Below are positions 21,412 through 42,009 of a stretch of 64,000 nucleotides of DNA, in pieces. The stretch is from the NCBI GenBank assembly GCA_964506795.1, contig CAZDMR010000001.1, positions 157,173 to 221,172 on the forward strand, given 5' to 3'. Both the position numbers and the translations under genes were made by a program. Every line of letters starts with the position of its first letter. Positions within the stretch are counted from its first letter, which is position 1. A model generated the notes under the pieces. It ran no database searches. It was not told the origin of the DNA and was given only the letters and a program-made list of their open reading frames with translations. This DNA is from an uncultured Acidobacteriota bacterium (GTDB taxonomy: Bacteria > Acidobacteriota > UBA6911).

Positions 21412-21657
21412 GCATCGCAGCGGCGTATGGTTTTTCATATTTTTATGTTCCTATTTTGCGCCGAACCCCTAGGGAACAAACCGGGAATTTTCGAAGGTCC
21501 TACGAATTAAAAAGTTGTAAGCTCAATGTCCGTATAAATTTAGCCGAAAATAATAGATAAAATACTTATCGTATCGTTGGAAAATTTCGATAAGCTAATC
21601 GGGTTTCCCCATAAAAGGGCCCAGACAGCGGGAGATAGCCTTGCCGGGGTCCCCGGG

Positions 21658-22863: not shown

Positions 22864-22886
22864 AATGAATCGAAGAGACCTTGGAC

Positions 22887-24437
22887 TCAGGCGCCGTCGA
22901 TCACTTCCCGGACTTTGCAAAGAAAGCTGTCGGCCGTAAAGGGTTTTTGAATAAAGGCCGCATTTGAGTCTGATAATCCGTCAAGCTGCGGTCTGTTATC
23001 CATATATCCGGAGACAAAAAGCGCAGGGAGCCCCGGGCGCACGGAGAATATCCTTTCAACCAATTCTGTGCCGCTCATGACCGGCATTACGACATCCGCC
23101 ACTACCAGGGAAACCTTTCCGGCGTGGTCTTCAAACAAGCGCAGCGCCTCTCTTCCATCGGCCGCTTCCAACACTTTATATCCACGATTGATCAGCATTC
23201 GGGCAAGCAGGCTTCTAACCATGGACTCATCCTCTGCGAGAAGCACGGTTTCTCCGTCCGCATCGCCGGACGCCTTTCCTTTGGTTTTTTCGGCGCGAAG
23301 CACGGTTTTTTCCCCGCAGGGGAAATAGATCCTGAAAGATGTCCCCTTTCCCTGTTCGCTGTGAACTTTAATGAAACCGCCGGCTTGCTCGACGATTTCG
23401 TAAACCGCAGACAGTCCCAACCCCGTTCCTCTCTGCGCGGTGGCGGCAGCGAAAACCGGATCGAAAAGACGGGCTTTTGTTACCGCGTCCATGCCCGTCC
23501 CGTCGTCACTGACAGCCAAAAGGACATACGCCCCCGGCGTCATTTCTTCATGAGGCCTTTCGGAGCCGCCGGCAAATGAAATGCGCGCCGTTTCAATGGT
23601 AAGCTTGCCCCCGGCCGGCATCGCATATCTGGCATTCGCGGCAAGGTTCATTATGAGCTGCTGAATTTGGCACGAATCGGCCCGAATCAATTCTATGCCT
23701 TCCTGCGTATTGCAGACGAGCTCCACATCCTCGCTGATAAGCCTCCGAAGCATCTTTTTTAGATCATAAACCAGTTCATTAAGATTCAAATCCTGTGGAG
23801 AACTAATCTGCTTGCGGGTAAAAGCAAGCAGTTGAGATGTCAAAGAACCCGCGCGCAGCCCCGCCTCTCGGATTTTTTCGAGATCCTGTCCCCTGGGATC
23901 GTCCTCATCGAGATCCTCCAGAAGCATTTCCGAATAACCGTTAACAATGTTTAGCATATTGTTGAGGTCGTGCATGACCCCGCCTACAAGAATGCCGATA
24001 GGCTCCATCTTCTGAGCCTGCAAAAACTGGGTTTTCAAGAGCTTATATTCCGAAATATCGCGCATAAATCCGACGACGTATCTTTTGCCCGCTTTATCCG
24101 TGAATCGGTCTCTTGTTACGGCAAACACGCGTTTTCGTCCTTGAGCGTCCTCTATTTCTTCCTCGGTTGTGCATTCTTTGCCCGCTTCCATATTGAGTTC
24201 CTCCTGCTTGAACATAAACTCATTTGGATTTACGGAGCGGAGCTCGCTAATTGTTTTACCGATAAGCTCGTCGCGCGGTTTTCCCACCAGAATGCAGAAA
24301 GCGCTATTTGCATGGATGAGTGTTTGCTCCTCGTTTTTGACAAAAACGGGATCGCGGATTCGGTCGAGAACTAATTCAAAGATTTCGGGATATTTATCGG
24401 TGGTTTCTTCATAGGCCAGCAAGGCTTTTTCGGGCAT
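22887..24437 (-). CDS. Cytoplasmic PAS hybrid sensor histidine kinase (CckA-like)
   Basis: PAS, H-box MHDLNN, NLAANARYAM, DDGTGM, GTGLGL, C-terminal REC (DVVMP, KPF). Confidence 0.92.
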   Translation of the reverse strand: MPEKALLAYEETTDKYPEIFELVLDRIRDPVFVKNEEQTLIHANSAFCILVGKPRDELIGKTISELRSVNPNEFMFKQEELNMEAGKECTTEEEIEDAQGRKRVFAVTRDRFTDKAGKRYVVGFMRDISEYKLLKTQFLQAQKMEPIGILVGGVMHDLNNMLNIVNGYSEMLLEDLDEDDPRGQDLEKIREAGLRAGSLTSQLLAFTRKQISSPQDLNLNELVYDLKKMLRRLISEDVELVCNTQEGIELIRADSCQIQQLIMNLAANARYAMPAGGKLTIETARISFAGGSERPHEEMTPGAYVLLAVSDDGTGMDAVTKARLFDPVFAAATAQRGTGLGLSAVYEIVEQAGGFIKVHSEQGKGTSFRIYFPCGEKTVLRAEKTKGKASGDADGETVLLAEDESMVRSLLARMLINRGYKVLEAADGREALRLFEDHAGKVSLVVADVVMPVMSGTELVERIFSVRPGLPALFVSGYMDNRPQLDGLSDSNAAFIQKPFTADSFLCKVREVIDGA

Positions 24438-24785: not shown

Positions 24786-24826
24786 GATCGTCGAAGGAAT
24801 TGCCTGACTTGTTGAGGAGCGAAACA

Positions 24827-25165
24827 ATGAAAATGATCCTATCAATAATCCGCCCTCACCGTCTCCAGGACGTTAAGGAGGCTCTTTCCGAAATAGGCGT
24901 GGCCGGACTGACCGTTACCGATGTTCGAGGAGCGGGTAGGCAGAAAGGCCAGGTGGAACGCTATCGCGGTTCCGAATACAGCATCGACCTTCTCGCGAAA
25001 TGCAAGATCGAGGTTGCTGTCGCCGACGACCAGTGCGAGGAAGCAGTTCAAGCAATTCGAAAAGGCGCCTACACCGGCGAGATCGGAGACGGAAAAGTTT
25101 TCATTCTGCCTCTTGAAGACTCCATGCGGATTCGCACCGGAGAAAGGGGAGAGGATTCGCTTTAA
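24827..25165 (+). CDS. glnB: Nitrogen regulatory protein P-II
   Basis: 112 aa, T-loop GRQKG..YRGSEY with Tyr51, TGEIGDGKVF, RIRTGE; GAGGAG RBS. Confidence 0.96.
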   Translation: MKMILSIIRPHRLQDVKEALSEIGVAGLTVTDVRGAGRQKGQVERYRGSEYSIDLLAKCKIEVAVADDQCEEAVQAIRKGAYTGEIGDGKVFILPLEDSMRIRTGERGEDSL

Positions 25166-25214
25166 GTATTAATTTGCAATAGCACTCGAGATGAAAAAAG
25201 GAGAGAGCGGGACA

Positions 25215-26636
25215 ATGGTGAAAAATCCAAAAGAAGCAATTGATTTGGCACAAAAGGCGGGGGTTAAAATAATAGACCTCAGGTTCATTGACATGCCTGG
25301 AGTGTGGCAGCATTTTTCGATTCCCGTGGAGGATCTCACGGAGGAGTTGTTCGAAGACGGCCTGGGATTCGACGGTTCCAGCATCCGAGGTTTCAAATAT
25401 ATTCATGAAAGCGACATGCTGCTTATCGCCGATCCGGAAACGGCCTATGTGGACCCCCTTCTGCAGGTTCCCACGATGGATCTGATCTGCAATGTTTATG
25501 ATCCGCTTACGCGCGAACCTTACAGCCGCGATCCGCGCTATATCACCCAGAAGGCGGAACGCTATCTTAAAGGCACCGGCATTGCCGATGTGAGCTATTG
25601 GGGGCCGGAGCTGGAATTCTATATTTTCGATGATGTGCGCTACGACCAGAACGCACACGCGGGCTATTATTTCATCGATTCCGTAGAGGGGGTCTGGAAC
25701 ACGGGGCGCGTTGAGAATCCAAACCTGGGTTACAAAATCAGGCATAAGGAGGGGTATTTCCCCGTGCCCCCGACAGACGTCTATCAGGACTTCCGCTCGG
25801 AAATACTTCTAAAAATGAAGGAAGTCGGCGTTCCGATTGAAGTTCACCACCACGAAGTGGGTACGGCGGGACAGGCGGAGATCGACATGCGCTTTGCGCC
25901 GATGACGAAAATGGCCGATAACGTGATGTATTACAAATACGTAATCCGGAACATGGCAAAAAAGTACGGGAAAACCGTCACATTCATGCCGAAGCCTTTG
26001 TTTGGGGACAACGGTTCGGGCATGCACTGCCATCAGAGTTTATGGAAGGGAGACAGAAACCAGTTTTACGACGAATCGGGTTACGCCATGCTGAGCAAGA
26101 CGGCCCAGTATTACATCGGCGGCCTGCTTAAGCACGCCGCTTCATTGCTGGGTTTCTGTGCGCCCACTACGAACTCCTACCGGAGGCTTGTTCCCGGGTT
26201 TGAAGCGCCGGTGAATCTTGCGTATTCCCAGAGAAATCGTTCCGCCGCCGTTCGTATCCCGGTGTATTCCAAGAGCCAGAAATCCAAGCGAATCGAATTC
26301 CGCTGTCCGGACCCCTCCGCCAATCCCTATATGTGTTTTGCAGCGCAGTTGATGGCGGGACTCGACGGGATTCAAAACAAGATCGATCCGGGCGAGCCGC
26401 TGGAAAAAGATCTGTACGATCTTCCGCCGGAGGAGGCTAAGGCCATAAAAAATACGCCGGGATCGCTGGGCGAGGCGCTGGATGCACTGGAGCAAGATCA
26501 CGATTTCCTCCTCAAAGGGGACGTCTTCACTCCTGACGTTATTGAAACGTGGATCCAATACAAGCGGGAAAAGGAATGGACACAGGTAAACCTGCGGCCC
26601 ACTCCTTACGAATTCTTCTTGTATTTCGATCTATAA
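25215..26636 (+). CDS. glnA: Type I glutamine synthetase (GSI-beta, adenylylatable)
   Basis: FDGSSIRGF, GPELEF, HHHEV, GSGMHCHQS, RIEFRCPD, adenylylation site KDLYDLP. Confidence 0.97.
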   Translation: MVKNPKEAIDLAQKAGVKIIDLRFIDMPGVWQHFSIPVEDLTEELFEDGLGFDGSSIRGFKYIHESDMLLIADPETAYVDPLLQVPTMDLICNVYDPLTREPYSRDPRYITQKAERYLKGTGIADVSYWGPELEFYIFDDVRYDQNAHAGYYFIDSVEGVWNTGRVENPNLGYKIRHKEGYFPVPPTDVYQDFRSEILLKMKEVGVPIEVHHHEVGTAGQAEIDMRFAPMTKMADNVMYYKYVIRNMAKKYGKTVTFMPKPLFGDNGSGMHCHQSLWKGDRNQFYDESGYAMLSKTAQYYIGGLLKHAASLLGFCAPTTNSYRRLVPGFEAPVNLAYSQRNRSAAVRIPVYSKSQKSKRIEFRCPDPSANPYMCFAAQLMAGLDGIQNKIDPGEPLEKDLYDLPPEEAKAIKNTPGSLGEALDALEQDHDFLLKGDVFTPDVIETWIQYKREKEWTQVNLRPTPYEFFLYFDL

Positions 26637-26728: not shown

Positions 26729-29311
26729 ATGCAAAAAGAAATTGAGTTTCTCCGCCGCAAGTTCCGCAACGGACGCACCGCTCTGTTTCGTCAAGTCGAT
26801 TGGACATCCCCATCGGGCGGCCTTCTCGAGGCGCATGCATCGCTTGTCGACGAAATCATCCGCCGGATCTACGCAATCTCGTGCGAATCGGCCGATCGCC
26901 GCGCCCCGCGCCATACGAATTCCGCGCTTGCCCTCGTAGCCACCGGCGGCTACGGACGAAAGGAACTGAATCCTTTTTCCGACATCGACATCGCATTTAT
27001 TCCATCGGAGGAAGAAGACCCCTGGGTTGAAGCCGCGGTTCACACGGCTTTTAAATTGGTCATGGACGTCTTTCTTTCCCTCAGGGACGTCCATGTAGGT
27101 TATTCTTTCCGCCCGGTGGCGGAAGCAAGCTCCTGGGACGTCGCGACAAAAACGGCCCTGCTGGATCTGCGCTACGTTTGCGGGGACATGGCGCTTGCCC
27201 GATTAATGCAGCGCCGCGTACGGGAAGTTCTTTCCCCGCTGGATTTAATGATTGAAACGCAATCCGCAACAAACGGGCGACAGAAGCCGGCGCGCACCTT
27301 GTATCTTGTTGAACCCAACCTTAAGGAAGGCCCCGGCTCGCTCAGGGACTTGCACCGCGCCCGCTGGATATTCCAATTGATGTTCAGCGGGGAGGAAATG
27401 GATCTTGAAACAGCGATGCGAACCCTGGCCGGAATTTCCAACCGGCGGATTGCCGAAGTACGGGCGGCGGCGGACTGGTTTCTGCGCGCCCGAACCTGGA
27501 TGCATCTCACCGCCGGCAGGCTTTCCGATGTGCTGATCACGAATTACCAGGACAGGATTGCCCGCGAGCTAGGCGACTGTTCCGCCCAGGAATGGCTTTC
27601 GAAGCATATGTTTTATTCCGAAATCCTAGCCAGATTTCGCGAGACCGCCGTCGTAACCCTTCTCCGCGGTCCCTTCTCAATTAACGGAGTGCTGTTGAAG
27701 GACGGATCCCTCCATCTGCCGGAAAATTCTACCGCCTTGAATGCGGCCGTCGGCATGTTTCAATTGTCCCAGAGATATTCGATCCCCGTGAACCTTAAGG
27801 ATCTGGAGCGGCTGGCGGAGCTGCGCGAACAAATGAATGCAACTCGGGAACCTTCCAAAGAAGAAGCGTGGGCTTTTAAGCGCATATTGGGAGAAGGCCG
27901 GGATGTGGCGCACACGCTGCGCACCTTATCGGATCTCGGATTTCTGGACAGGTTTATCCCCGATTTTTCGCTCGTCATGCGCTTTGTTCCTCCGGATCCC
28001 GCTCATCGCTATACGGTAGGAGAGCATTCAGTTCGAATGGTCGAGCATCTCGAACTGCTCCGCAGCGGAGCGGACGCGGCCGGGCGCCGTTTTACGGATT
28101 TGATCGGCCAGTGCGCCCATTTTGATATCCTCTGCCTGGCCGCGCTGCTTCACGATGCGGGAAAGCTTCTGCCGGGCGGCGATCATTCCGAAACCGGCGC
28201 GGAGCTGGCCAAGACCGTTGCGGCCAGGCTGAACCTTGCTCCCGAGAAAAGCGAGCTCCTCGATATTTTGGTGCGGCAGCATTTGTTGCTTGTGCGAACG
28301 GCCAGGCTCCACGACCTGAAATCCGCTCCCGTCATCCAGATGGTCGCAGAACGCCTTCGCGGCCCCGAAGCATTGCGCCATCTTTATGTCCTTACCTATG
28401 TCGACACCTGCGCCGTCTCGGAAGGAAACTGGACATCCATGGATGTCAGGAACATGGAAGACCTGTACCGCAGAATTCAGGAATTCTTTGATCGCCCGGA
28501 TGAAACTCAGAGCGAGGGAGCGCAGGAAGATCAGGCGGTGCGCTTACGTAAGAAGCTCGCCGCGCTTCAAACAACCAAAACGGATGCCGCTGTTTTAAAG
28601 CACTGCGACGCAATGCCCGCCGGATACGTGCTTAATACTCCCTTGGAAGAAATCTCTTTTCATCTGCAGCTTTTGGACAGGCTCGAGGCGGAAAGGGTGG
28701 TGCTGGACGTTTACAACCAGCCGGGAGAAGATTACACGGAGCTCACCGTCTGCGCTTATGACGACCCCAAGCCGGGCATATTGGCAAAAATTACAGGCAT
28801 TCTATACGGATGCAACGCGGACATCCACAGAGCCCAGGCATTTACCCTGGAGAAAGAGCCTCCGGTTGTTTTGGACACCCTTTGGATTCGTTCCAACGGC
28901 GCCCAGATTTCCGAAAACAGGGCCAGGCGAATCCGGACAAGCTTAAAAGACGCCCTCACGGGAGCCAAAACCGTCGAGCGCTTTCTTGAGGAGGCCGGCA
29001 AAAATCCCCCCAAAAGCATTGAGCTCGACGGCATCGATATGCGAAACGATCTCTCGGAAGAACACACGGTCGTTCATATCATCGCGCACGACCTGCAGGG
29101 CCTCCTTTACATAATGACGCGAAGCCTGTCGCGATGCGGACTTCATATCCATTCGGCCAAAGTCGCTACATGGAACGCTCGAGCAGAAAACAACTTCTAC
29201 GTAACTACCGCGAAGGGAAGTCAAATACCGAATAAGGACATACCTCTATGGACGGAGTGGCTTGAGCGGGTTTTAAGTGGCGATGGAGCCGAATCCTCCG
29301 ATCGAGCTTAA
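26729..29311 (+). CDS. glnD: P-II uridylyltransferase / uridylyl-removing enzyme
   Basis: GGYGRKELNPFSDID, LKEGPGSLRD, HD domain (HRYTVGEH..LHDAGK), two ACT domains. Confidence 0.94.
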   Translation: MQKEIEFLRRKFRNGRTALFRQVDWTSPSGGLLEAHASLVDEIIRRIYAISCESADRRAPRHTNSALALVATGGYGRKELNPFSDIDIAFIPSEEEDPWVEAAVHTAFKLVMDVFLSLRDVHVGYSFRPVAEASSWDVATKTALLDLRYVCGDMALARLMQRRVREVLSPLDLMIETQSATNGRQKPARTLYLVEPNLKEGPGSLRDLHRARWIFQLMFSGEEMDLETAMRTLAGISNRRIAEVRAAADWFLRARTWMHLTAGRLSDVLITNYQDRIARELGDCSAQEWLSKHMFYSEILARFRETAVVTLLRGPFSINGVLLKDGSLHLPENSTALNAAVGMFQLSQRYSIPVNLKDLERLAELREQMNATREPSKEEAWAFKRILGEGRDVAHTLRTLSDLGFLDRFIPDFSLVMRFVPPDPAHRYTVGEHSVRMVEHLELLRSGADAAGRRFTDLIGQCAHFDILCLAALLHDAGKLLPGGDHSETGAELAKTVAARLNLAPEKSELLDILVRQHLLLVRTARLHDLKSAPVIQMVAERLRGPEALRHLYVLTYVDTCAVSEGNWTSMDVRNMEDLYRRIQEFFDRPDETQSEGAQEDQAVRLRKKLAALQTTKTDAAVLKHCDAMPAGYVLNTPLEEISFHLQLLDRLEAERVVLDVYNQPGEDYTELTVCAYDDPKPGILAKITGILYGCNADIHRAQAFTLEKEPPVVLDTLWIRSNGAQISENRARRIRTSLKDALTGAKTVERFLEEAGKNPPKSIELDGIDMRNDLSEEHTVVHIIAHDLQGLLYIMTRSLSRCGLHIHSAKVATWNARAENNFYVTTAKGSQIPNKDIPLWTEWLERVLSGDGAESSDRA

Positions 29312-29333: not shown

Positions 29334-32261
29334 GTGATGCATCGAATCGTTGAAATAGCCCGCAAATCATTGGCTCCCGAACCGGTGCGGCAGGCGCTTG
29401 AGGGCGTGTCCGAATGCGTACCTTCCCGCCTGGATGATTATCCTGATTCCTTTCTCCTCGATCTGGGCCAGCTGCTGATTGTCTCGCCCCCAATGCTGGA
29501 TACGGTGAGGGCGCACCCGGAGTACTTGAGCTGGCTGCGAGACCGGTCGTCGGATGAGGGAGAAATGCGAAGCGGGCCCGCTGCTTTTCGACAGCGCTGC
29601 GAAGCCTGGAATGACGCGATCGAGGGGCAGTCGGATTTTTTTGACAGCCTGCGGGTTTTCAAGCGGCGGGAATACCTGCTTCTTTCTTTTATGGATGTAG
29701 CCAGCCGCCTTTCCTTTCAAGACATCGTGCACCGATTGTCCGAACTAGCGGACTGGGTCATTCAGACGGCGCTTCAGCACACTTGGAAAAAGCTTGCCGA
29801 AGAGGAATCCGCCCGGCCGGCGTCCTTTATACCGGAAAGCGGTTTTGCCGTGATCGCCATGGGCAAACTCGGCGGAATGGAGCTCAATTACAGCTCGGAC
29901 GTCGACCTGATTTTCTGCCGGCGCAATCCCGAAAACGCAAGGGAACAGGATTTTTTCCTAAAATTGGGTGAACGCCTTGTCGGGGTGCTCTCAAAGATCG
30001 GGCCCGAAGGATTTCTTTACCGGATCGACATGCGGCTTCGGCCCCACGGCGCCACGGGACCGCTGGCGCCGACCATCGACAGCCTTGTAAGCTACTATGA
30101 ATCTTGGGGGGAGCCGTGGGAACGGCAGGCGCTTATCAAAGCCCGCTTCATAGCGGGGAGTCCGGAAGTCGGCAGGCGTATTCAAGACTTCGTTGCCGCC
30201 TTCACTTTCTCGAGGCAGCTGGACGAATCCGCGCTCGAGGACGTCAAAAGGATCAAGCATCGCGCCGAGAAAGAGTTTTCTGTTGAACCGAAGATCCATC
30301 TGAAGCAGGGCCCCGGCGGCATTCGCGATATCGAGTTTTATGTCCAGTTTTCGCAGCTTACCATCGGATGGAAATACCCGGAGGTTTGCGAATCCAACAC
30401 TTTGAAGGCGATCGAAGCCCTGGCGCGGACGAAGGTTTTGCTCGAGGGGGAGGAAAGCGCGCTTTCTCTCGCTTATATATTTTTGAGGACTGTCGAGCAC
30501 CGGCTGCAGCTGAAAGCCTTGACTCCACAGGCTGTTCTGCCGGATTCTTCCGCGGAATTAAGTCTTCTGGCCTCCGCTCTGGGATACGGCAGCGAAGACG
30601 GCAATGCGCGGGATGATTTCTTGCGCGACCTTAATCGTCACCGCGTTCGGGTCCGGGGCATCCTCGAACGCGTGTATCTGGCTCCCGGCTACCTTCGGCT
30701 TCATGAGCGCGAAGAGGAGCTCGCGCAGCTTCTCAGCGACCGCGCGCCCAGGAGGCGAGTCCATGAACTATTGTCGCAATACGGTTTCCGCGATATCGAC
30801 AAAGCCTGGCAAAACATCCGGCTGCTCGCCCTGGGGCCGGAAGGACGATTGCTTCCGCCCGGGGAGCGGCGCTCATTCCTCGAATTTGCATTCCCCATGC
30901 TGGAGGTCTTGAAAGAGACTATTGATCCGGACAGGGCATTGCATAATCTGGAGGATTTCGCCACCGCCACCGGAAACCGAATCTCTTTTTTAAGGACTCT
31001 GGCTTCGAGGCGCCCGCATTTGTTGCGTCTCACCAATCTTCTCGCGCTCAGCAATCGATGCCGGCAGATTTTGTCGCGCCACCCTGAATACTTCGACAGC
31101 CTTGCGCGCGGAATATTTCTACATGAGGGGAGAGACGAAGACTCGATGCACGCCGAACTGCGGGAACGCATGGGGGTATCGCCGCGGGGAGAAGCGCGGG
31201 AGAACGTCTTGCGGAAATACCGGCAGCGGGAAACGGTCCGGATCGCCTATCGGGATCTGGCGGGGCTTGCGGATTCCCTGGAAATCAGCCGGGAATTGAG
31301 CGATCTTGCATCGGCATGCCTTCTCTCGGCCATGAATTGGACACGCACTCCATACACAGACCCCTCCGAAGATCGGAAAGATCCCATGTGTTTGATTGCG
31401 CTCGGGAAATTGGGTTCGCAGCAGATGCATTACGCCTCGGATTTGGACCTTATTTTCCTTTATGATGCCGAGCCCGAAGGAACTAGCCCGCAGGCACGAA
31501 GCTGCATTCAAAAGGAACAAGATGAAAGGGTTGAAAAAATCCTGGAGCTTCTGGCGGGCGTAACGCCCGAAGGAGTTGTGTATTCCGTCGATTTAAGGCT
31601 GCGCCCCGAAGGAGCCTCCGGTATACTGGCGCGCTCTTGGGAGAGTTTCCTGGAATACTCCAGAAAGCGCATGCAGCCCTGGGAGCGCATGGCCCTTGTG
31701 CGATCGAGAATGCTGACAAAAACTCGCGGCCTTCAGCAGCGATGGGATGCGCTGATTTCCGAAATTGTCTATGAATACGACTGGAATTCCGAGGCGGTAG
31801 AATCCATCCGCCATCTAAAAAGAAGAATCGAAACAGAGAAAAACCGGGAGACGCGGCACACGCTTGATTTTAAATACGGGAAAGGCGGAATCGCCGACCT
31901 GGAGTTTTTGGTTCAGTTTCTTCAAACACAACATGGTCGACGGCATCCAAACGTTCGTGCGGCGGGTTTGAATGACGCGCTTCTCGCTCTCCGCAACGAG
32001 GGCATCCTGGATGATTCCGAAGCGGATATCCTCCTTCGAGCCCACAAATTCGAGCGACTTGTCGAAAATCGATACCAGCTTATGGAAGAATGGACATCCC
32101 GGGAAGTGTCGCGCGAAGCCCCCGCGCTGGCTCGCCTTGCCGGAAGCATCGGTTACGGCAGACAAGAAGCTGCGGCCCGCAAATCCTTTATTTCCGATTG
32201 GGACAACACGGCGCGCTCCGTGCGCGCGTTGGTTGAAAAATACTTTTATTCCAAGCAATGA
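29334..32261 (+). CDS. glnE: Glutamine synthetase adenylyltransferase/deadenylase
   Basis: Two NTase halves: MGKLGGMELNYSSDVDL and LGKLGSQQMHYASDLDL; DMRLRP, WERQA, KQGPGGIRDIEF. Confidence 0.94.
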   Translation: MMHRIVEIARKSLAPEPVRQALEGVSECVPSRLDDYPDSFLLDLGQLLIVSPPMLDTVRAHPEYLSWLRDRSSDEGEMRSGPAAFRQRCEAWNDAIEGQSDFFDSLRVFKRREYLLLSFMDVASRLSFQDIVHRLSELADWVIQTALQHTWKKLAEEESARPASFIPESGFAVIAMGKLGGMELNYSSDVDLIFCRRNPENAREQDFFLKLGERLVGVLSKIGPEGFLYRIDMRLRPHGATGPLAPTIDSLVSYYESWGEPWERQALIKARFIAGSPEVGRRIQDFVAAFTFSRQLDESALEDVKRIKHRAEKEFSVEPKIHLKQGPGGIRDIEFYVQFSQLTIGWKYPEVCESNTLKAIEALARTKVLLEGEESALSLAYIFLRTVEHRLQLKALTPQAVLPDSSAELSLLASALGYGSEDGNARDDFLRDLNRHRVRVRGILERVYLAPGYLRLHEREEELAQLLSDRAPRRRVHELLSQYGFRDIDKAWQNIRLLALGPEGRLLPPGERRSFLEFAFPMLEVLKETIDPDRALHNLEDFATATGNRISFLRTLASRRPHLLRLTNLLALSNRCRQILSRHPEYFDSLARGIFLHEGRDEDSMHAELRERMGVSPRGEARENVLRKYRQRETVRIAYRDLAGLADSLEISRELSDLASACLLSAMNWTRTPYTDPSEDRKDPMCLIALGKLGSQQMHYASDLDLIFLYDAEPEGTSPQARSCIQKEQDERVEKILELLAGVTPEGVVYSVDLRLRPEGASGILARSWESFLEYSRKRMQPWERMALVRSRMLTKTRGLQQRWDALISEIVYEYDWNSEAVESIRHLKRRIETEKNRETRHTLDFKYGKGGIADLEFLVQFLQTQHGRRHPNVRAAGLNDALLALRNEGILDDSEADILLRAHKFERLVENRYQLMEEWTSREVSREAPALARLAGSIGYGRQEAAARKSFISDWDNTARSVRALVEKYFYSKQ

Positions 32262-32272
32262 GGTGGGTGTCC

Positions 32273-33604
32273 ATGACTTCGGCAAATCCTATTAACCAGG
32301 TTCTCGAAATCGCCAAGCAGGAAAGGGTGCGATTCCTTCGACTTCAGTTTACGGACATATTGGGATCGATCAAAAATGTGGAAATTCCGGAGCACCAGTT
32401 TGAACGCGCGCTTGAGGGCCAGGTGGTTTTTGACGGTTCGGCCATCGGCGGATTCCGACTGGAGGAAGCGGATATGATCCTGTGGCCTGATCCGGAGACC
32501 TTTAGGGTCTTCCCTTGGGAGGACCGGCGCGGGAAGGTCGCGCGCATGATCTGCGACGTTCGCCTCCCTGACGGATCGCCATTTTCCGGGTGTCCACGAA
32601 CCGCCCTTAAAAACATAGTTCGCCAAGCCGAAGAGATGGGATTTCAGCTGATTGTCGGGACGGAAGTGGAGTTTTTTCTGTTTTTAAGGGGGCCCGACGG
32701 CAAGGCAACCAACATCACTCACGACGTCGGCGGATACTTCGACCTTGCGCCGATCGACCGGGGCGAAGAGGCGCGCCGTGATATGGTCTCGACGCTGGAA
32801 CGCATGGGTTTTCAAGTTGAAGGCGCCCATCACGAAGTCGCCCCCGGCCAGCACGAAATAGATTTCAAACCCGTCGATGCGGTTACGGCGGGAGACAACC
32901 TCGTCACCTGCCGCTTCCTGGTGCGGAAAATCGCGATGGACAACGATCTTCACGCCACCTTCATGCCCAAGCCTTTCGTAGGCAAGAACGGTTCCGGCAT
33001 GCATCTCTACCAAGCTCTGTTCAAGGACGGGGTTAATGCATTTTCCGATCCGAAAGCAAAATATCGACTGACTCGGCAGGGCCTTCAATATATCGCCGGC
33101 ATGCTGGCGCACGCTCGCGGGATGACGGCTATCACCAATCCGTTGGTGAACTCTTATAAGCGCCTGGCTCCCAATTTTGAAGCGCCGACTCACGTCGCCT
33201 GGTCCGAGGTTAACCGCAATCCGCTGATTCGGCCTTCCAACCGCAGGGGCGAGGGAACCTTTTGCGAGTACCGTTTGCCGGATCCGTCCTGTAATCCATA
33301 TTTGTGCCTGGCCGCCGTACTGGCCGCCGGCTTGGAAGGGATTCGCAAACAAATGGACCCGGGGCCGCCGGTAAACAAGGATATTTACCGGATGAGCCAG
33401 AGAGAACGCAGCCGCCTGCGCGTCGAAAGTCTGCCGACCGATCTAAGCGAAGCGGTACGCGCTTTCCAGAAGGACAAATTCCTACAGAACGCTCTGGGTT
33501 CGCGCATCTCGGAGCACATCATTCAAGCCGAACGGACGGAGTGGCAGGAGTATATCGGCCAGGTGCATCCGTGGGAACTCGATCGTTATCTTGCGTCCTA
33601 CTAA
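32273..33604 (+). CDS. Second glutamine synthetase-family protein (GSI-alpha-like)
   Basis: LQFTDILG, FDGSAI, GTEVEFF, HHEVAPGQHEIDF, GSGMH, EYRLPDPSCNPY; about 443 aa; start 32258 or 32273. Confidence 0.9.
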   Translation: MTSANPINQVLEIAKQERVRFLRLQFTDILGSIKNVEIPEHQFERALEGQVVFDGSAIGGFRLEEADMILWPDPETFRVFPWEDRRGKVARMICDVRLPDGSPFSGCPRTALKNIVRQAEEMGFQLIVGTEVEFFLFLRGPDGKATNITHDVGGYFDLAPIDRGEEARRDMVSTLERMGFQVEGAHHEVAPGQHEIDFKPVDAVTAGDNLVTCRFLVRKIAMDNDLHATFMPKPFVGKNGSGMHLYQALFKDGVNAFSDPKAKYRLTRQGLQYIAGMLAHARGMTAITNPLVNSYKRLAPNFEAPTHVAWSEVNRNPLIRPSNRRGEGTFCEYRLPDPSCNPYLCLAAVLAAGLEGIRKQMDPGPPVNKDIYRMSQRERSRLRVESLPTDLSEAVRAFQKDKFLQNALGSRISEHIIQAERTEWQEYIGQVHPWELDRYLASY

Positions 33605-33607
33605 TTG

Positions 33608-34477
33608 CTATTCTGAATGAATCCCCCAGCTTTTAAACATATCCTTATAAAATTGCGGCTGTTCGAAATCCGGAAGCATGGACATGTACTGATCGCGATA
33701 AGAAAACATTCCTTTTTTCAGGCCTGTCATAAGCGCCGCCATCTTTACTTGAGGCACCGCGAATATCAACTCCTCTTCAAGCGTAAGCGCTCTCTGATAT
33801 TCCCCTGGATCGGGAAGCACGATGCAGTATTTCCCCGTTACAATGGGATCCACAACGCAATGCCCGCAGGACGGCAGCGACAAATGGGTGTCGACTTGCG
33901 ATCCGCCGCCGCTGTACATCATCGTGAGCAGCATCCCCCTGATTTGCGCGGGATTTGCATATATCAGGACGACATCCGGCATAAAAGAGGCGGTCTTTAA
34001 AGGAGCCGTAACCACGCCGATATATTTCCCGACATCAAAGCTTAGAAACGATTCTCCATACATCCCCATGGAAGCGGGCTTTTCCACCATTCCGTAGGCT
34101 ATGAGAGCCGTCGGACACCAGTGATCCTCCTTCAACATGGCTACGGTTTTCTTTTCCCGCCGCGACATGCCAAAGGCCTGGCACTGGGCTATATGATAGC
34201 CTCCGTCTTTTTTGGGCCGGAACGCTTCTTTAGGGATATCTTCTTCCTTCTCGAGCATTTTAACGGCCACAGGGGACGTTCTCATAATCAGCGATATTTC
34301 CAGCTCCTCTCCGTATTTATTGAACGCGCTCAACGCAGGCTCGGGATTTACCTGCTTCGGGAGAGGCTTTTTCGTGGTTTGAGCGGCGGAAATCGCCGCG
34401 CTTGATGTCCCCAAGGCTACCGCTCCGAGCCCCAGCTCCAGAGCTTCCCGTCTAGTGTATTTATTTTTCACGGACAC
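33608..34477 (-). CDS. DUF169-family protein with twin-arginine-like leader
   Basis: TRREALELGLGAVALG leader; CQAF, HWCP, PDVVLIYANPAQ motifs; GGAGGAG RBS. Confidence 0.7.
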   Translation of the reverse strand: MSVKNKYTRREALELGLGAVALGTSSAAISAAQTTKKPLPKQVNPEPALSAFNKYGEELEISLIMRTSPVAVKMLEKEEDIPKEAFRPKKDGGYHIAQCQAFGMSRREKKTVAMLKEDHWCPTALIAYGMVEKPASMGMYGESFLSFDVGKYIGVVTAPLKTASFMPDVVLIYANPAQIRGMLLTMMYSGGGSQVDTHLSLPSCGHCVVDPIVTGKYCIVLPDPGEYQRALTLEEELIFAVPQVKMAALMTGLKKGMFSYRDQYMSMLPDFEQPQFYKDMFKSWGIHSE

Positions 34478-36154: not shown

Positions 36155-36214
36155 TGAATTAAATTATGCTAAAAAAGATGCGTTTAAAAATTGAACTTAT
36201 TTTCAAAGGGCAAA

Positions 36215-37552
36215 ATGATGACTGTAAGAAAAGCGACAAAAGCGGCGAGAAGTAAAAGTACAGCTGTATCTGAGAAAGCTTACAATCCGTTCGAAATAGC
36301 TCAACAACAGTTCAACAGAATCGCCGAACTGCTTGGTTTGGATGAACCGACTCGTGATTTCATGCGCAATCCCGTGAGGGAATATCATTTCAACATCCCA
36401 GTCCGGATGGATCACGGCGGGATGCGTATTTTCCGCGGCTTCAGGGTGCAGCACAATGATGCGCGCGGACCTTGCAAGGGGGGCGTTCGTTTTCATCCGC
36501 TCGAGACGATCGACACGATCCGCGCGCTTGCCATGTGGATGACTTGGAAATGCGCCGTCGTCGACATACCTCTCGGCGGTAGCAAGGGCGGGATAATCTG
36601 CGACCCGCACAACCTCAGCGCACACGAAATCGAACAGCTTTGCCGGGGCTGGGTCCGGCAAATCTCCCGGGATGTGGGACCATTCATGGACGTGCCCGCT
36701 CCGGATGTGATGACCAATGCCCAAGACATGCTGTGGATGCTGGACGAATTCGAAAAGATCCACGGGGCCAAGTACCCGGGCTTCATCACGGGAAAACCGG
36801 TCAGCGTCGGAGGTTCTCTTGGCCGCAAAGAAGCGACCGGCTACATGGTGATCCACACTGTTCGCGAAGCTCTCAACGAAATGAATCTGAAACCCGAAAA
36901 CACAACGGCCAGCATTCAAGGCTTCGGCAATGTTGCTCAATACTCCCTTGATCTATACCACAAGATTGGAGGAACAGTGATCAGCATTTCAAGCTGGGAT
37001 CCCGCCGACAATAAGACATTCTGCTGCAGGAAAAAGACCGGGATCATATTTGACGAGATCAACTCAATCACCGATCCATGGGGCACAATTAATAGAAGGA
37101 AAGCCCAGGATCTCGGATACGAAATCCTGCCTGGCGAAGCGTGGCTGGAACAAGACGTTGACATTCTCATTCCTGCCGCCGTGGAAAATCAGATCACCGC
37201 AGAAACCGCGCCAAAAATAAATCCCAGGGTCAAGCTCGTGGCGGAAGGAGCCAACGGCCCGACCACGCCCGAGGGAGATCTGATACTGGATCAACGTGGG
37301 ATCTCTCTCATCCCCGATATTCTCTGCAATGCCGGAGGGGTAACATGCAGCTATTTCGAGCAAGTCCAGGGAAATATGAATTACTACTGGGAAGAGAAAG
37401 AGGTGCTCGACAAGCTGAGTTCAAAAATGTCTTCGGCGTTTTACGCAGTCAGGGAAGTGTCCAAGCGCCGCAAGCTTCCCATGAGAGATTCGGCTTATGT
37501 GCTCGCCGTAGATCGTGTTGCGCGCGCCTGCAAGGACCGGGGGTGGTGCTAA
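36215..37552 (+). CDS. gdhA: Glutamate dehydrogenase (Glu/Leu/Phe/Val family)
   Basis: RGPCKGGVRF, GGSKGG, DVPAPDV, GFGNV, EGANGPTT, NAGGVTCSYFE. Confidence 0.92.
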   Translation: MMTVRKATKAARSKSTAVSEKAYNPFEIAQQQFNRIAELLGLDEPTRDFMRNPVREYHFNIPVRMDHGGMRIFRGFRVQHNDARGPCKGGVRFHPLETIDTIRALAMWMTWKCAVVDIPLGGSKGGIICDPHNLSAHEIEQLCRGWVRQISRDVGPFMDVPAPDVMTNAQDMLWMLDEFEKIHGAKYPGFITGKPVSVGGSLGRKEATGYMVIHTVREALNEMNLKPENTTASIQGFGNVAQYSLDLYHKIGGTVISISSWDPADNKTFCCRKKTGIIFDEINSITDPWGTINRRKAQDLGYEILPGEAWLEQDVDILIPAAVENQITAETAPKINPRVKLVAEGANGPTTPEGDLILDQRGISLIPDILCNAGGVTCSYFEQVQGNMNYYWEEKEVLDKLSSKMSSAFYAVREVSKRRKLPMRDSAYVLAVDRVARACKDRGWC

Positions 37553-37734
37553 AGGAAAGCCGCAGAGAATCCTAGCCGCGGAGCGATTCTTCTGAGAAAG
37601 GGACGATTGGTCTTTGCCGGGAGTTGATCTCTGAAGGCAACTCACCGACCCCCTGGAATTGGGAAATCTTGGTTGCGGCCATAAACCGCGCCCGGTGAAA
37701 CAGAATAGCATCAGCACCTTACTGTTTTGGTCTC

Positions 37735-40700
37735 ATGAAAGAGAAACCGATAGACAGGCTGCTCATCGATCTGAAGGAAAGGGCCCGGGAACTCAACTGT
37801 CTATATGAAGTTGAAGAGATTCTGAGCGATTCCAACATCGCCCTGGAGGAGCTTTTCAGCCGGATTGTAAAAACGATTCCCGCCGGATGGCAATATCCCG
37901 ACGTATGCGAAGCGCGGATCGTTTACGGGAACAAGGAGTTTCAAACCAGGGGGTTCCGGGAGACCGAGTGGATCCAGCATTCGGATATTTTCGTCCAAGA
38001 CCAAACGGTAGGGCAGATCAGCGTCTGCTACACCCAAAAACGCCCGATTGCAGACGAAGGGCCGTTCCTGAAGGAAGAACGAAAGCTGATCAATACCATC
38101 GCGGACCGGTTGAAGCATCGGATTCTCCATTACAATCTTAAGTCCGTGTTCGAAAGGCAGAAACTCCATGGTGAATCCTCTGAAGAGTCCGCCGTTATTC
38201 TGGAACTGCTGAACCGAACCGATCCGCTTCTGCTCACGCGGATTTCGAGAAAGATGCTGAACCACCTCACATGGGCCGGATTTGAGGAAGCCCATCGGAT
38301 TCTGGAGCGCATCAGTCCGCCCCCAAGCCCGAATGGCAAGGATGAAGAGCAGGACGAAAACCAACCTTCGCGAATTTCGACAACTCAAGATCTTCTCTCC
38401 GCCACCAATGAGATCTTTAAGATGGCAAGGGAGCATCTGCCGGAGCCGGAAATATTATCCTTCATCCAAAAATGGATTCAGGAAGACCGTTCGGGATTTT
38501 TGATAAAAACCCTCGAAAATCCCAATTCCTCGCTGGTCGACATTGCCGCGGCAATAAAACGGTTTCGCCATCTTACCCCTCAGGGGATCGAGCTTTCACC
38601 GTCGCGGGCGCGAGCCTTTCAAGTTTCGTTGGTCCAGCGCCTCCTAAGCGACGATCCCCAGTTTCTTCAAGTCGCCACGAAATCGATCAACCTGAGCGAT
38701 TTCAGCGATTTGCTCGAGCATACGATTTACCCGGCGGAAAGCCATGGAAAACTCGGCGGAAAGGGTGCGGGCCTGTTTATCGCCATGCAAATCCTCAAAA
38801 GATACTCCGGCCAGCATAAGATCCTCCAAGGCATTCGAATCCCAAAAACATGGCATATCACATCGGACGGCCTCCTCAGCTTCATCAACTACAACGATCT
38901 GGAAGAGATCATTGAACACAAATACAAAGATATCGGCCAAGTCCGTCAGGAATACCCGTCGATTGTCCAGGTTTTCAAGAGCGCTTCCTTTCCGCCGGAG
39001 ATTCTCAGCGGGCTTTCCGTTGCGCTTGACGATTTCGCGGAAATACCCCTCATCGTGCGCAGTTCAAGCCTTCTCGAGGACAGCCGCGGAACCTCTTTTG
39101 CCGGAAAATACAAAAGCCTTTTTATCGCCAACCAGGGAAGCAAACGCCAACGGCTGGCCGCCCTCACAGACGCGATTTCCGAGGTCTATGCCTCTACTTT
39201 CGGCCCAGACCCGATCGGCTACAGGAAGGAGCGCCAACTGATCGATTTCCATGAAGGAATGGCGATCCTGATAGAGGAAGTGGTCGGAACCAGAGTAGGA
39301 AGATATTATATGCCTGCATTTGCAGGGGTAGGTTTCAGCCGTAACGAATTCCAGTGGTCTCGGCGCATACGGCGGGAAGACGGCCTTCTCCGCTTGGTCC
39401 CGGGTTTGGGGACGCGCGCCGTCGACAGGCTGTCAAATGACTACCCGGTTCTCGTCTCCCCGGGCCAGCCTTCTCTCCGCGTGAACGTCATGGTCGAAGA
39501 AAAGGTGCGCTACTCTCCCAAACGGATCGATGCGATCAACCTGGAAACCGGCTCATTCGAAACAATTGAGATCGAGGACCTTCTTAAGGAATACGGCAAC
39601 GACTACCCAATGATCAGTCAAGTGGTCTCTATCCTGGAGCATGACAGGCTGGTACAGCCGTGGGCTTCCGGGATCGACAAAGATAAAGACGTTGCGGTAA
39701 TCACATTCGAAGGCCTTCTTGGACAAACGCCTTTCATTGAGCAGGTTTCGACCATACTCAGAGTGCTTCAATCTGAACGCGGCATGCCGATTGACATCGA
39801 ATTTGCCCATGATGGGAAGGATTTCTATCTGCTTCAATGCCGGCCCCAGAGCTACGGCGCCCTTTATAAACCCGCGCCCATGCCGAGAGATGTCCCCGAT
39901 GAACAGATTCTGTTTTCCGCCAACCGATACGTAACCAACGGAACCGTCGCGGGCATCACGCACATAGTTTACGTCGATCCACAGAATTACTCGGACTTGC
40001 CGCAAAGGGCGGATCTGCTAGCGGTGGGACGCGCAGTCGCCAAGCTCAACCAGCTTTTGCCGAAGCGCCGCTTCATACTCATGGGACCGGGACGCTGGGG
40101 GAGTCGCGGCGATATCAGGTTGGGAGTCAGCGTGTCTTATTCCGATATCAACAACACGGCAATGTTGGTTGAGATCGCGCAGAAACACAAAGACTATACG
40201 CCGGAACTCTCCTTCGGCACGCACTTCTTTCAAGACCTCGTCGAATCATCCATCCGCTATCTTCCTCTTTATCCCAATGAGCGCGGGACCCTTTTTAACG
40301 AGTCCTTCTTCACAGATTCCCGCAATTGGCTGCCCGATCTGCTGCCCCAGTTTGCCTATCTCGCGGATACGATTCGAGTCATCGACGTGCCGAATACCGC
40401 GCCCGGAATGGTTTTCAACGTGTTTATGAACGGCGAGTCCGACGAAGCCATGGGCGTCCTGTCTCCGCGATCGGCGGAACCCGCGGAAGTGCTTCCCAGG
40501 AGCGAAAGAATCGGCGAGCCCGACTCTGCATCCGAAGATCATTGGCGCTGGCGCCTTGACAGTGTGGAGGAGATAGCGGAGCAGATGGATCCGGAAAAGT
40601 TCGGAGTCAAGGCGATGTACCTATTCGGGAGCACCAAGAATGCAACCGCGGGCCCGGAGAGCGACATCGACCTGTTAATTCATTTCGACGGCACCAAGAG

Positions 40701-40917
40701 CCAGAAAAAAGAACTGCTGACCTGGCTGGAAGGTTGGAGCCTTTGCTTGAGCCACAGAAACTATTTAAAAACCGGCCATAAAACGGCGGGACTAATCAAC
40801 ATCCACCTCGTAACCGATCAAGATATCCGCAACCGCACCAGCTACGCAGTTAAAATAGGCGCGGTTTCAGATCCTGCCCGCCCCATTCCGCTCGCCAAGA
40901 AGAAAAGCGATTCATAA
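37735..40917 (+). CDS. GAF-like / PEP-pyruvate-binding (PPDK_N ATP-grasp) / His-motif / pol-beta nucleotidyltransferase fusion, function unknown
   Basis: ELNCLY..PFLKEER N-terminal sensor-type domain; GKLGGKG, VRSSSLLED, SFAGKY, DIEFA..LLQCRP; SFGTHFFQD; FGS-x10-DID. Confidence 0.85.
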   Translation: MKEKPIDRLLIDLKERARELNCLYEVEEILSDSNIALEELFSRIVKTIPAGWQYPDVCEARIVYGNKEFQTRGFRETEWIQHSDIFVQDQTVGQISVCYTQKRPIADEGPFLKEERKLINTIADRLKHRILHYNLKSVFERQKLHGESSEESAVILELLNRTDPLLLTRISRKMLNHLTWAGFEEAHRILERISPPPSPNGKDEEQDENQPSRISTTQDLLSATNEIFKMAREHLPEPEILSFIQKWIQEDRSGFLIKTLENPNSSLVDIAAAIKRFRHLTPQGIELSPSRARAFQVSLVQRLLSDDPQFLQVATKSINLSDFSDLLEHTIYPAESHGKLGGKGAGLFIAMQILKRYSGQHKILQGIRIPKTWHITSDGLLSFINYNDLEEIIEHKYKDIGQVRQEYPSIVQVFKSASFPPEILSGLSVALDDFAEIPLIVRSSSLLEDSRGTSFAGKYKSLFIANQGSKRQRLAALTDAISEVYASTFGPDPIGYRKERQLIDFHEGMAILIEEVVGTRVGRYYMPAFAGVGFSRNEFQWSRRIRREDGLLRLVPGLGTRAVDRLSNDYPVLVSPGQPSLRVNVMVEEKVRYSPKRIDAINLETGSFETIEIEDLLKEYGNDYPMISQVVSILEHDRLVQPWASGIDKDKDVAVITFEGLLGQTPFIEQVSTILRVLQSERGMPIDIEFAHDGKDFYLLQCRPQSYGALYKPAPMPRDVPDEQILFSANRYVTNGTVAGITHIVYVDPQNYSDLPQRADLLAVGRAVAKLNQLLPKRRFILMGPGRWGSRGDIRLGVSVSYSDINNTAMLVEIAQKHKDYTPELSFGTHFFQDLVESSIRYLPLYPNERGTLFNESFFTDSRNWLPDLLPQFAYLADTIRVIDVPNTAPGMVFNVFMNGESDEAMGVLSPRSAEPAEVLPRSERIGEPDSASEDHWRWRLDSVEEIAEQMDPEKFGVKAMYLFGSTKNATAGPESDIDLLIHFDGTKSQKKELLTWLEGWSLCLSHRNYLKTGHKTAGLINIHLVTDQDIRNRTSYAVKIGAVSDPARPIPLAKKKSDS

Positions 40918-41148
40918 AGACTTCCGGCGCGTGGTAATTTTCTACGTTCGATCGCCCACCGAGCATGGGTTCAAAAAGATTGAAAAGGCGCTCGCCCACT
41001 GTGGACGGCAACCCATGGAATCAACCCTGGAAAATACACTTATTGCCGCAAGATGATCGGGCGCGGTTGAAAACACGCCGCCGATCTACAGGGAATTCGA
41101 AAGCTTGGCCGCCGGCACCGGCCGCGTTACGATAAATACGAGGACTAT

Positions 41149-42009
41149 ATGGCCGTTTGCTTTTTTGTTACGGATCTTCACGGGAGTCATCCGCGCTGTC
41201 AAAAGCTATTTGACGCGATTGAAAGAGAAATCCCGGACGCAGTGTTTCTGGGAGGAGATCTTTTTCCCTCCGGCCTGGGCGCGGCCCTGGCGCTTAAGAA
41301 CTACGAAGATTTTCTGGACGAAGTTTTTGCCGCGGGATTTTCCAAAATTAAAAGGAAAATGGGGCCGGCCTATCCCTCTGTCTTCCTGATTCTCGGCAAC
41401 GACGATGTGAAAATTGAAGAAGCGCGGCTGAAAGAGTTCGAGGCACAATCTATCTGGACTTACGTACACAACAGACGCGTTTCATGGAAGGATTATTCGA
41501 TTTACGGCTACGCCTGTGTGCCTCCAACTCCGTTCATGCTGAAAGATTGGGAACGGTACGACGTCTCGGCGTATTTAGATCCGCTCTCCGTCGCTCCGGA
41601 AGACGGCTGGTTTTCCGTGTCCGTTTCAAAACGGAGCCTCCGGCGCGAGACCATTCACTACGATCTTTATAAGCTCGCAGCCGATGACGACTTGTCGCGC
41701 GCGATTTTTTTGTTTCATACGCCCCCGTACAATACCGGCCTGGATAGGGCCGCGCTGGATGGAAAGAAGGTGGACCACGTAAACCTGGACGTTCATGTCG
41801 GGAGCATCGCGGTTAGACGGTTCATCGAGTCCAGACAGCCGCTGGTGACACTACACGGCCATGTTCATGAGTCCGCGCGACTTACGGGGGTGTGGAAGGA
41901 GCGAATCGGCAAGACCGTGGCTATTTCCGCAGCCCACGACGGCCCCAACCTAGCCCTCGTCAGGTTCGACCCCAACGAACCCCAAAGCGCAACAAGGGAG
42001 CTGCTTTAA
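41149..42009 (+). CDS. Calcineurin-like metallophosphoesterase
   Basis: TDLHG, GGD, GNDD, FHTPP, HGHVHE. Confidence 0.9.
   Translation: MAVCFFVTDLHGSHPRCQKLFDAIEREIPDAVFLGGDLFPSGLGAALALKNYEDFLDEVFAAGFSKIKRKMGPAYPSVFLILGNDDVKIEEARLKEFEAQSIWTYVHNRRVSWKDYSIYGYACVPPTPFMLKDWERYDVSAYLDPLSVAPEDGWFSVSVSKRSLRRETIHYDLYKLAADDDLSRAIFLFHTPPYNTGLDRAALDGKKVDHVNLDVHVGSIAVRRFIESRQPLVTLHGHVHESARLTGVWKERIGKTVAISAAHDGPNLALVRFDPNEPQSATRELL

Follow-up and report, generated by a model that had tools for sequence, protein, structure and literature searches.

Exchange between amino-acid nitrogen and central carbon metabolism passes mainly through glutamate dehydrogenase (GDH). To our knowledge, no dedicated modification system is established for the bacterial enzyme, apart from GarA/OdhI-type inhibitors and allostery. 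In the GlnE/glutamine synthetase (GS) and GlnD/PII systems, a pol-beta nucleotidyltransferase (NTase) is tied to the sensing of nitrogen status. A dedicated pair or a bifunctional enzyme covalently switches one enzyme in PpsR/PDRP-PEP synthase (PEP, phosphoenolpyruvate), DraT/DraG-nitrogenase and AceK-isocitrate dehydrogenase, and the modifier genes adjoin their target genes in ppsR-ppsA and draTG-nifH. In PtsP (EI-Ntr), a GAF domain that senses glutamine/2-oxoglutarate is joined to a His-phosphorylating member of the PEP-utilising superfamily that regulates nitrogen-related targets, and in MntA-HepT (MNT-HEPN) an MNT-type NTase AMPylates a tyrosine of the partner protein. Mammalian (mitochondrial) GDH is inactivated through AMPylation by SelO (PMC12375108). 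The locus described here lies in a 64,000-nucleotide stretch (the window) of contig CAZDMR010000001.1 from an uncultured Acidobacteriota bacterium. It consists of a GDH gene (gdh), a gene for a 1060-residue protein in which a PPDK_N-type ATP-grasp is combined with a pol-beta NTase (the fusion), and a metallophosphoesterase (MPE) gene, and the products of the latter two most likely form a switch controlling GDH.

The proposed switch shares its logic with these systems and differs from each of them in its parts. As in GlnE/GS, reversible nucleotidylation of a central ammonium-handling enzyme is proposed, but the fusion NTase is of the minimal MNT type and has neither the GlnE nor the GlnD_UR_UTase domain, its core of an ATP-grasp and a new C-terminal domain (CTD) is missing in GlnE, its target is a proposed one, and removal of the mark would fall to a separate metallophosphodiesterase rather than to a second NTase or an HD domain. 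PpsR/PDRP, DraT/DraG and AceK belong to unrelated families with unrelated chemistry, and none contains an ATP-grasp or an MNT NTase. EI-Ntr uses PEP, a swivel domain and a TIM barrel and has no ATP-grasp, whereas in the fusion only the ATP-grasp is present. Unlike MntA-HepT, the cassette has no HEPN partner, and SelO has a pseudokinase fold that is unrelated in sequence to the fusion.

Gene neighborhoods carry the case for a link to GDH. A scan with one genome per species found the fusion in at least 506 species-level genomes, and neighbors were counted in the best 80 of these carriers. The 80 come from Acidobacteriota, Ignavibacteria, Calditrichia, Bacteroidota, Anaerolineae, Planctomycetota, Zixibacteria, Delongbacteria, Eisenbacteria, Synergistia and metagenome-assembled genomes labelled Clostridia. 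Sequence sufficient for the GDH count was present upstream of the fusion in 67 loci, and sequence sufficient for the MPE count was present downstream in 67. A GDH at least 55% identical to that of the window (range, 55-83%) lies beside the fusion in 65 of 67 loci from more than ten phyla, co-oriented with it and within 3.5 kb in 62. MPE is present in 50 of 67 loci, immediately downstream of the fusion in 44 and within 8 kb in six more. De novo clustering of the flanking open reading frames (ORFs) returned only three recurrent families, namely PPDK_N proteins, GDH and MPE. A metagenome scan was aimed at a class of 770-residue proteins, mostly re-found the fusion family, and therefore counts as a replication of the genome survey, not as a test of the 770-residue class; among its 80 loci GDH was present in 41 of 46 and MPE in 31 of 56, with 29 of the 31 convergent. 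The association of the three genes is far beyond chance. The linkage of fusion homologs to gdh and the phosphoesterase predicted by the initial annotation is borne out by these counts, as is its statement that barrel-less PPDK_N proteins recur beside gdh under wrong names. Homologs that match over about 1060 residues with an identity of 54% or more are abundant. The public names of the homologs, which are at least 52% identical over the full length across phyla, are 'pyruvate, water dikinase', 'phosphoenolpyruvate synthase' or 'nucleotidyltransferase'.

The usual gene order is GDH (429 residues), a 585-residue PPDK_N-CTD protein (mid), the fusion, and then MPE on the opposite strand. Median gaps are 52 bp between GDH and mid and -4 bp (an overlap) between mid and the fusion, and some genomes encode mid and the fusion joined as single 1630-residue proteins. 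In 43 of the 44 loci with MPE immediately downstream it is encoded on the opposite strand and converges on the fusion, the stop codons being a median of 3 bp apart, and such a convergent gene is therefore not co-transcribed with the fusion. Mid is absent from the window's subclade (at least 69% identity), and MPE is co-oriented in the loci sampled from it, which are the window, its closest relative (locus L002) and locus L161. The co-orientation of all three genes that was first noted is thus particular to the window lineage. The three-gene set itself was correctly recognized, but the usual cassette contains mid in addition, and the window trio is a reduced version of a widespread GDH-dedicated cassette.

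The CTD connects the fusion to a larger superfamily. It was found in 1551 cluster representatives (E<=1e-3), lies downstream of PPDK_N in every protein scanned, and occurs in architectures of about 590, 770, 990, 1060 and 1630 residues. The conserved core is PPDK_N plus CTD rather than the NTase, which about 15% of cassettes lack or carry in degenerate form. One further family of about 1000 residues, with the architecture REC-(DUF5752-like)-PPDK_N-CTD, lies directly downstream of a different, 453-residue GDH class in five of five contigs sampled by length alone, and four of the five have no fusion, mid or MPE nearby. This pairing is an independent replication of the GDH link, mostly without the rest of the cassette. 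The two systems also meet. At loci L046, L047 and L108 an operon of GDH (454 residues), the REC-type gene and MPE is convergent to an operon of GDH (429 residues), mid and fusion; the REC-type gene alone precedes MPE at four further loci; and at L164 MPE starts 7 bp after the REC-type gene, with the fusion 1.8 kb off on the opposite strand. GDH linkage belongs to the PPDK_N-CTD superfamily.

Some REC-type loci depart from these layouts. Two or three GDH paralogs (470, 453 and 415 residues) surround the REC-PPDK_N-CTD gene at L166 (4990-13242) and L169 (6557-12449), and a SIR2-family gene directly adjoins the 415-residue GDH gene of L166. A mammalian sirtuin ADP-ribosylates GDH. A variant cassette at L165 (10973-18358) consists of the REC-type gene, GDH (428 residues), mid (566 residues) and a 919-residue PPDK_N protein that has no NTase; it lacks MPE, and a bacterial-microcompartment shell protein (PF00936) is encoded two genes downstream.

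PPDK_N is the nucleotide-binding domain of PEP synthase, PPDK and rifampin phosphotransferase. The homologous ATP-grasp of the fusion retains all catalytic motifs, with GGKGAGL, VRSSSLLED, FAGKYKS, DIEFA and LQCRP invariant in 22 homologs from several phyla. The remainder of the protein differs from these enzymes. Pfam finds no PEP-utilizers swivel phospho-His domain (PF00391) in the fusion, mid, the REC-type protein or any neighbor, the PEP/pyruvate TIM barrel (PF02896) has no match in the fusion, the PPDK_N neighbors or the recurrent neighbors, and a Foldseek search with fusion residues 700-1060 gave no PPDK, EI or PPS match. The rifampin-binding domain is also missing, and the fusion has instead the alpha/beta CTD, a sensor and the NTase. 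The PEP-synthase models of NCBIfam cover only the ATP-grasp and score about ten times under their cut-offs (PRK06464, 54 vs 598 bits; TIGR01418, 48 vs 740). By these measures the fusion is not an ordinary PEP synthase, as had been suspected from its sequence.

Searches for CTD relatives in Pfam (E<=10), with profiles against PDB sequences and with Foldseek returned none. The CTD carries two motifs, GPGRWGS(R)GD and S-x-G-(T/S)-H-F-F, which all architectures examined share without change. The histidine of the second motif, His830, does not vary in the fusion, mid, REC-type or 770-residue classes, and the model places it at the amino terminus of a helix, directly after Gly-Thr/Ser. The phospho-His of PPDK and EI also sits at a helix amino terminus. 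The Gly-Thr/Ser-His string locally resembles G-G-x-T-S-H of PEP synthase and PPDK but is too short to count as evidence. One protein, P0033 (a 69% homolog of the fusion), has Ser in place of His830 (SFGTSLFQDL), GPERWGS in the first motif and further changes at otherwise invariant sites; it may represent a gene copy in decay or an artefact of sequencing.

The amino-terminal 338 residues of the fusion have nothing meaningful in Pfam (E<=10) or in profile searches of PDB sequences. AlphaFold2 (AF2) models of the fusion parts were built from shallow alignments of 15-17 sequences, and the model of residues 1-338 (mean pLDDT 74) shows an alpha/beta domain at residues 1-145 (pLDDT 80-93) followed by a helical domain. 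Foldseek matches residues 1-145 to the GAF domains of Nlh1, NifA, PDE5, CodY and PtsP (3ci6) with a probability of ~1.0, TM-scores of 0.5-0.6 (normalised to target) and E-values of only 0.02-0.5. The domain is named GAF-like, and tentatively so because these E-values are weak; the predicted fold agrees with the amino-terminal sensor postulated at the outset. Residues C22, W52 and C58 are invariant in the aligned fusion homologs. Both cysteines (codons 37798-37800 and 37906-37908) fall within the GAF-like domain, and the pair could serve in metal or cofactor binding or in redox sensing. The helical domain is common to the PPDK_N-CTD class of about 770 residues, whose 777-residue members align with the fusion from about residue 147. 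A HEPN identity was considered for this domain and dismissed, since its R-x4-H string lacks conservation.

The NTase is recognized by a match to NTP_transf_2/Polbeta at residues 946-995 (35.4 bits vs a cut-off of 21), and the hG[GS] (G965-S966) and DxD (D977-I-D979) motifs are intact in the window protein. The top Foldseek matches are AAD(9) (6xz0) and the MNT antitoxins 2rff, 8xeh and 7ae9, with probabilities of 0.9-1.0 and E-values of only 5e-3 to 3e-2. MNT-type NTases are known to act mainly on proteins, antibiotics or RNA ends. In Pfam the GlnE (PF03710) and GlnD_UR_UTase (PF08335) domains are absent from the fusion and occur only in the true GlnD and GlnE encoded upstream. A census of 148 loci found the GS and DxD motifs intact in about 90%, with a few lineages degenerate or devoid of the NTase. 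The putative third catalytic carboxylate, a metal ligand placed by model topology on the beta-strand after these motifs, is Asp (LLDVH) in about 97% of loci and Asn in the window (N1022, LINIH, codon 40798-40800), and position 1022 is Asn or Ser throughout the window's subclade. The substitution, the loss of mid and the re-orientation of MPE in this subclade may be connected changes.

MPE belongs to the calcineurin-like metallophosphoesterases (Pfam Metallophos, 47.5 bits vs a cut-off of 21.5), and none of the residues D9, H11, D37, N84-D85, H190, H238 and H240 in its metal-ligand motifs (DxH, GD, GN(H/D)D, H and GHxH) varies among 25 orthologs. The sole named similarity is to the YfcE-type model PRK09453, which matches 21 of the 25 orthologs weakly (best E 6.7e-8) and gives the window protein 18 bits, below the equivalog cut-off of 117. 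Judged from these matches, MPE resembles a distant YfcE-like phosphodiesterase rather than a PPP protein phosphatase. Where the NTase is intact, 75 of 105 loci carry MPE, against one of 21 where it is degenerate or missing (Fisher p = 8.5e-9, in a test that ignores kinship among loci), and the exceptions are spread over at least four architectural or motif groups. The reverse look-up from MPE found a PPDK_N-NTase fusion beside three of three informative homologs. The phosphoesterase is thus conserved together with the fusion, as the initial annotation had supposed, and its co-occurrence with the NTase fits a writer/eraser or maker/breaker pair.

The window GDH matches ELFV_dehydrog_N (E 2e-52) and ELFV_dehydrog (E 6e-65), gives a full-length alignment with Thermococcus GDH (1euz, E 2.4e-116), retains the GGSKGG catalytic-Lys and NAGGVT.S motifs, and has the K/S residues that bind the glutamate side chain. 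The end-to-end alignment with solved hexameric GDHs and the kept motifs identify it as a genuine GDH, which by sequence is of the hexameric archaeal/Thermotoga-type class. Its score with the archaeal GDH equivalog of NCBIfam, 449 vs a cut-off of 750, places it in a distinct clade. Compared with 1euz, cassette GDHs have small, moderately conserved inserts only. At loci L034, L039, L041, L042, L046, L055, L058 and L064, antisense ORFs of about 470-750 residues overlap the GDH gene and beat it in a longest-ORF gene call, an artefact risk for automated annotation.

These neighborhoods establish dedicated functional links of PPDK_N-CTD enzymes with GDH and of the NTase with MPE. A regulatory enzyme acting on GDH is favored over a pathway enzyme because of the sensor and receiver inputs, the intact ATP-grasp, the invariant His and the lack of any other conserved pathway gene; input domains such as the GAF-like fold of the fusion and the REC domain of its paralog are typical of regulatory enzymes. 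The fusion would act as a signal-controlled enzyme in which the GAF-like domain responds to a metabolite; the most plausible candidates are ligands that report carbon/nitrogen status, for instance 2-oxoglutarate, glutamine or glutamate. The sensor would govern the PPDK-type ATP-grasp, which would split ATP and load a phosphoryl group onto His830 of the CTD in a dikinase-type relay. From His830 the phosphoryl would be handed on to GDH and alter its activity. The MNT-type NTase and the YfcE-like MPE would serve as an accessory pair that marks GDH, or the fusion itself, with a nucleotidyl (phosphodiester) group and takes it off again. We infer four elements of this scheme: which ligand is sensed, the relay through phospho-His, the role of GDH as acceptor and the direction in which it is regulated. 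This ligand-gated phospho-relay onto GDH is favored because of the links, the regulatory features, the modifier-target precedents and the AMPylation of GDH by SelO (PMC12375108). Covalent control of GDH, a reading drawn from gene context and motif conservation alone, is the best supported of those considered and is put forward tentatively. Its boldest form is a possibility on the unlikely side, namely that PPDK_N-CTD proteins are protein-modifying 'protein, water dikinases' whose novel phospho-His carrier phosphorylates GDH, with reversible nucleotidylation by the NTase and MPE as a second layer. The family and its linkage to GDH are described nowhere in the literature covered, which excludes most subscription journals.

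Several observations weigh against covalent control of GDH. The link of the fusion to GDH modification comes from gene context and not from experiment or structure. The PPDK_N enzymes known to us all phosphorylate small molecules or glucans, never proteins. Both conserved CTD motifs are modelled at low confidence, and no similarity of the CTD to the swivel phospho-His domain was detectable with PDB-sequence profiles or Foldseek. On the side of the target, comparison of cassette GDHs with 1euz revealed no candidate modification site, no alignment column separates GDHs of cassettes with and without an intact NTase, and no special or extra domain was recognized in cassette GDHs. The reversal arm is incomplete in many genomes, with about 25-45% of loci lacking MPE inside 10 kb and the gene usually convergent where present, and shared descent may temper the statistical coupling of NTase and MPE. 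Two points concern the window organism. Nucleotidyl transfer may be weakened there because N1022 stands in place of Asp, and mid is missing from the cassette; neither mid nor a REC-type paralog turned up anywhere else in the 64-kb window.

The strongest alternative is a second messenger, in which the ATP-grasp/CTD and the NTase make a nucleotide-derived effector that controls GDH allosterically and is degraded by MPE. The NTase and phosphodiesterase co-occur in the manner of the synthase/hydrolase pairs of signalling nucleotides, the YfcE-type affinity of MPE points away from protein phosphatases, GDHs are classically regulated by nucleotides, and a non-protein acceptor would agree with all PPDK_N enzymes of which we know. 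This explanation is nevertheless judged unlikely. The NTase-deficient cassettes and the whole REC-type family keep the GDH link without an active NTase and MPE, the known substrates of MNT-type NTases are mostly of other kinds, and no additional nucleotide-binding domain is recognisable in GDHs of the cassette class.

Less likely again is a metabolic role, in which PPDK_N-CTD dikinases act on a small metabolite of the glutamate/2-oxoglutarate pathway that GDH merely supplies or consumes. The tight operon with GDH and the intact ATP-grasp motifs would suit such an enzyme, and PPS, PPDK, rifampin and flavonoid phosphotransferases and glucan water dikinase all phosphorylate a hydroxyl or enolate of non-protein substrates. 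The GAF-like and REC inputs argue for regulation instead of pathway catalysis, only GDH, PPDK_N-CTD paralogs and MPE recur and no other pathway enzyme is conserved nearby, and loci contain two or three paralogs each, which pair with two GDH classes. A non-covalent regulator or scaffold, in which the fusion binds the GDH hexamer and tunes it through ATP- and ligand-dependent changes of conformation with no group transfer, is improbable. The exceptional full-length conservation of the fusion is of the kind seen for large interaction surfaces and the gene order suggests stoichiometric co-expression, but the strong conservation of the ATP-grasp, His830 and the catalytic residues of NTase and MPE points to chemistry beyond binding.

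The remaining alternatives are effectively excluded. The ordinary annotation as PEP synthase or PPDK agrees with the public names of the homologs but would have to accommodate a protein that contains the ATP-grasp third of that enzyme only and whose swivel and TIM barrel are not supplied by its neighbors. An extension of the GlnB/GlnD/GlnE/GS cascade, to which the initial annotation had drawn attention, is suggested by the complete cascade that ends 2.6 kb upstream in the window, but this proximity is not conserved (GS, GlnE or GlnD within 10 kb of the fusion in 0 of 80 genome loci), and in the window the two clusters have a minus-strand gene and a transposase-like ORF between them. A defence or toxin-antitoxin element would account for an NTase closest to MNT antitoxins and ANT enzymes and for weak partial PADLOC matches to the candidate systems PDC-S09 and PDC-S10, but these matches span merely 36-40 residues, the HEPN partner is absent, and the linkage is to a core metabolic enzyme, syntenic across phyla and without compositional anomaly at the cassette locus.

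The gene calls in the window are based on an ORF list with Pfam, NCBIfam and Rfam scans (Table 1), and the three co-oriented genes first reported for the locus are present with Pfam identities that agree. An AAAGGG box precedes the ATG of gdh, and the in-frame TTG is the alternative start. The spacers measure 182 bp between gdh and the fusion and 231 bp between the fusion and MPE; neither contains an intrinsic terminator-like site, and the promoter/terminator scans stayed at background level. Rfam has no match within 33-45 kb of the window. Upstream, the two GS genes bracket glnD and glnE with the PII gene ahead, and the start of the second GS gene overlaps the end of glnE by 4 bp. Just ahead of the PII gene, positions 21577-24437 contain genes for a double-receiver protein (428 residues, plus strand) and a PAS-HisKA-HATPase-REC hybrid kinase (516 residues, minus strand). 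The 382-residue ORF weakly resembles REP-associated tyrosine transposases (NCBIfam E 9.5e-11, under the cut-off) and may mark a rearrangement point that joined the GS and gdh clusters.

Table 1. Positions of the gdh cassette, the domains of the fusion and neighboring genes in the window.
Feature	Position	Strand	Basis or remark
gdh	36215-37552 (ATG, 445 aa) or 36191-37552 (TTG, 453 aa)	+	ELFV_dehydrog_N + ELFV_dehydrog (Pfam)
gdh-fusion spacer	37553-37734	+	182 bp; slot of the 585-aa PPDK_N-CTD gene in most relatives
Fusion gene, 1060 aa	37735-40917	+	PPDK_N + NTP_transf_2/Polbeta (Pfam)
GAF-like putative ligand-sensing domain, aa 1-145	37735-38169	+	AF2 model + Foldseek
All-helical domain, aa 150-335	38182-38739	+	DSSP of model: helices only
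PPDK_N-type ATP-grasp, aa 339-706	38749-39852	+	Pfam PF01326, E 2.5e-56
CTD, aa 707-885	39853-40389	+	Conserved alpha/beta domain with GPGRWGS(R)GD and S-x-G-T/S-H-F-F motifs (His830)
MNT/ANT-type pol-beta NTase, aa 931-1060	40525-40914	+	Pfam NTP_transf_2/Polbeta, Foldseek
MPE gene, 286 aa	41149-42009	+	Metallophos (Pfam)
PII gene	24800-25165		Nitrogen cascade upstream of gdh
GS gene (first)	25191-26636		Nitrogen cascade
GlnD gene	26729-29311		Nitrogen cascade
GlnE gene	29334-32261		Nitrogen cascade
GS gene (second)	32258-33604		Nitrogen cascade; ends 2.6 kb upstream of gdh
DUF169 gene	33608-34477	-	Between second GS gene and gdh
Transposase-like ORF, 382 aa	34774-35922	+	Between DUF169 gene and gdh

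The switch logic is itself known. What is new is the undescribed CTD and the combination of a dikinase-type ATP-grasp, an NTase and a phosphodiesterase, which is unprecedented. The family is large, as the numbers of carrier genomes and of CTD cluster representatives show, and it spans many phyla with close linkage to two GDH classes. If the proposal is true, GDH would be subject to a switch parallel to GlnE/GS in many anaerobic and soil heterotrophs, among them Acidobacteriota, Bacteroidota, Ignavibacteriota, Calditrichota, Planctomycetota and others. Proof of it would define a new mechanism of enzyme regulation, correct thousands of 'PEP synthase' annotations, and bear on nitrogen cycling by abundant uncultured heterotrophs.

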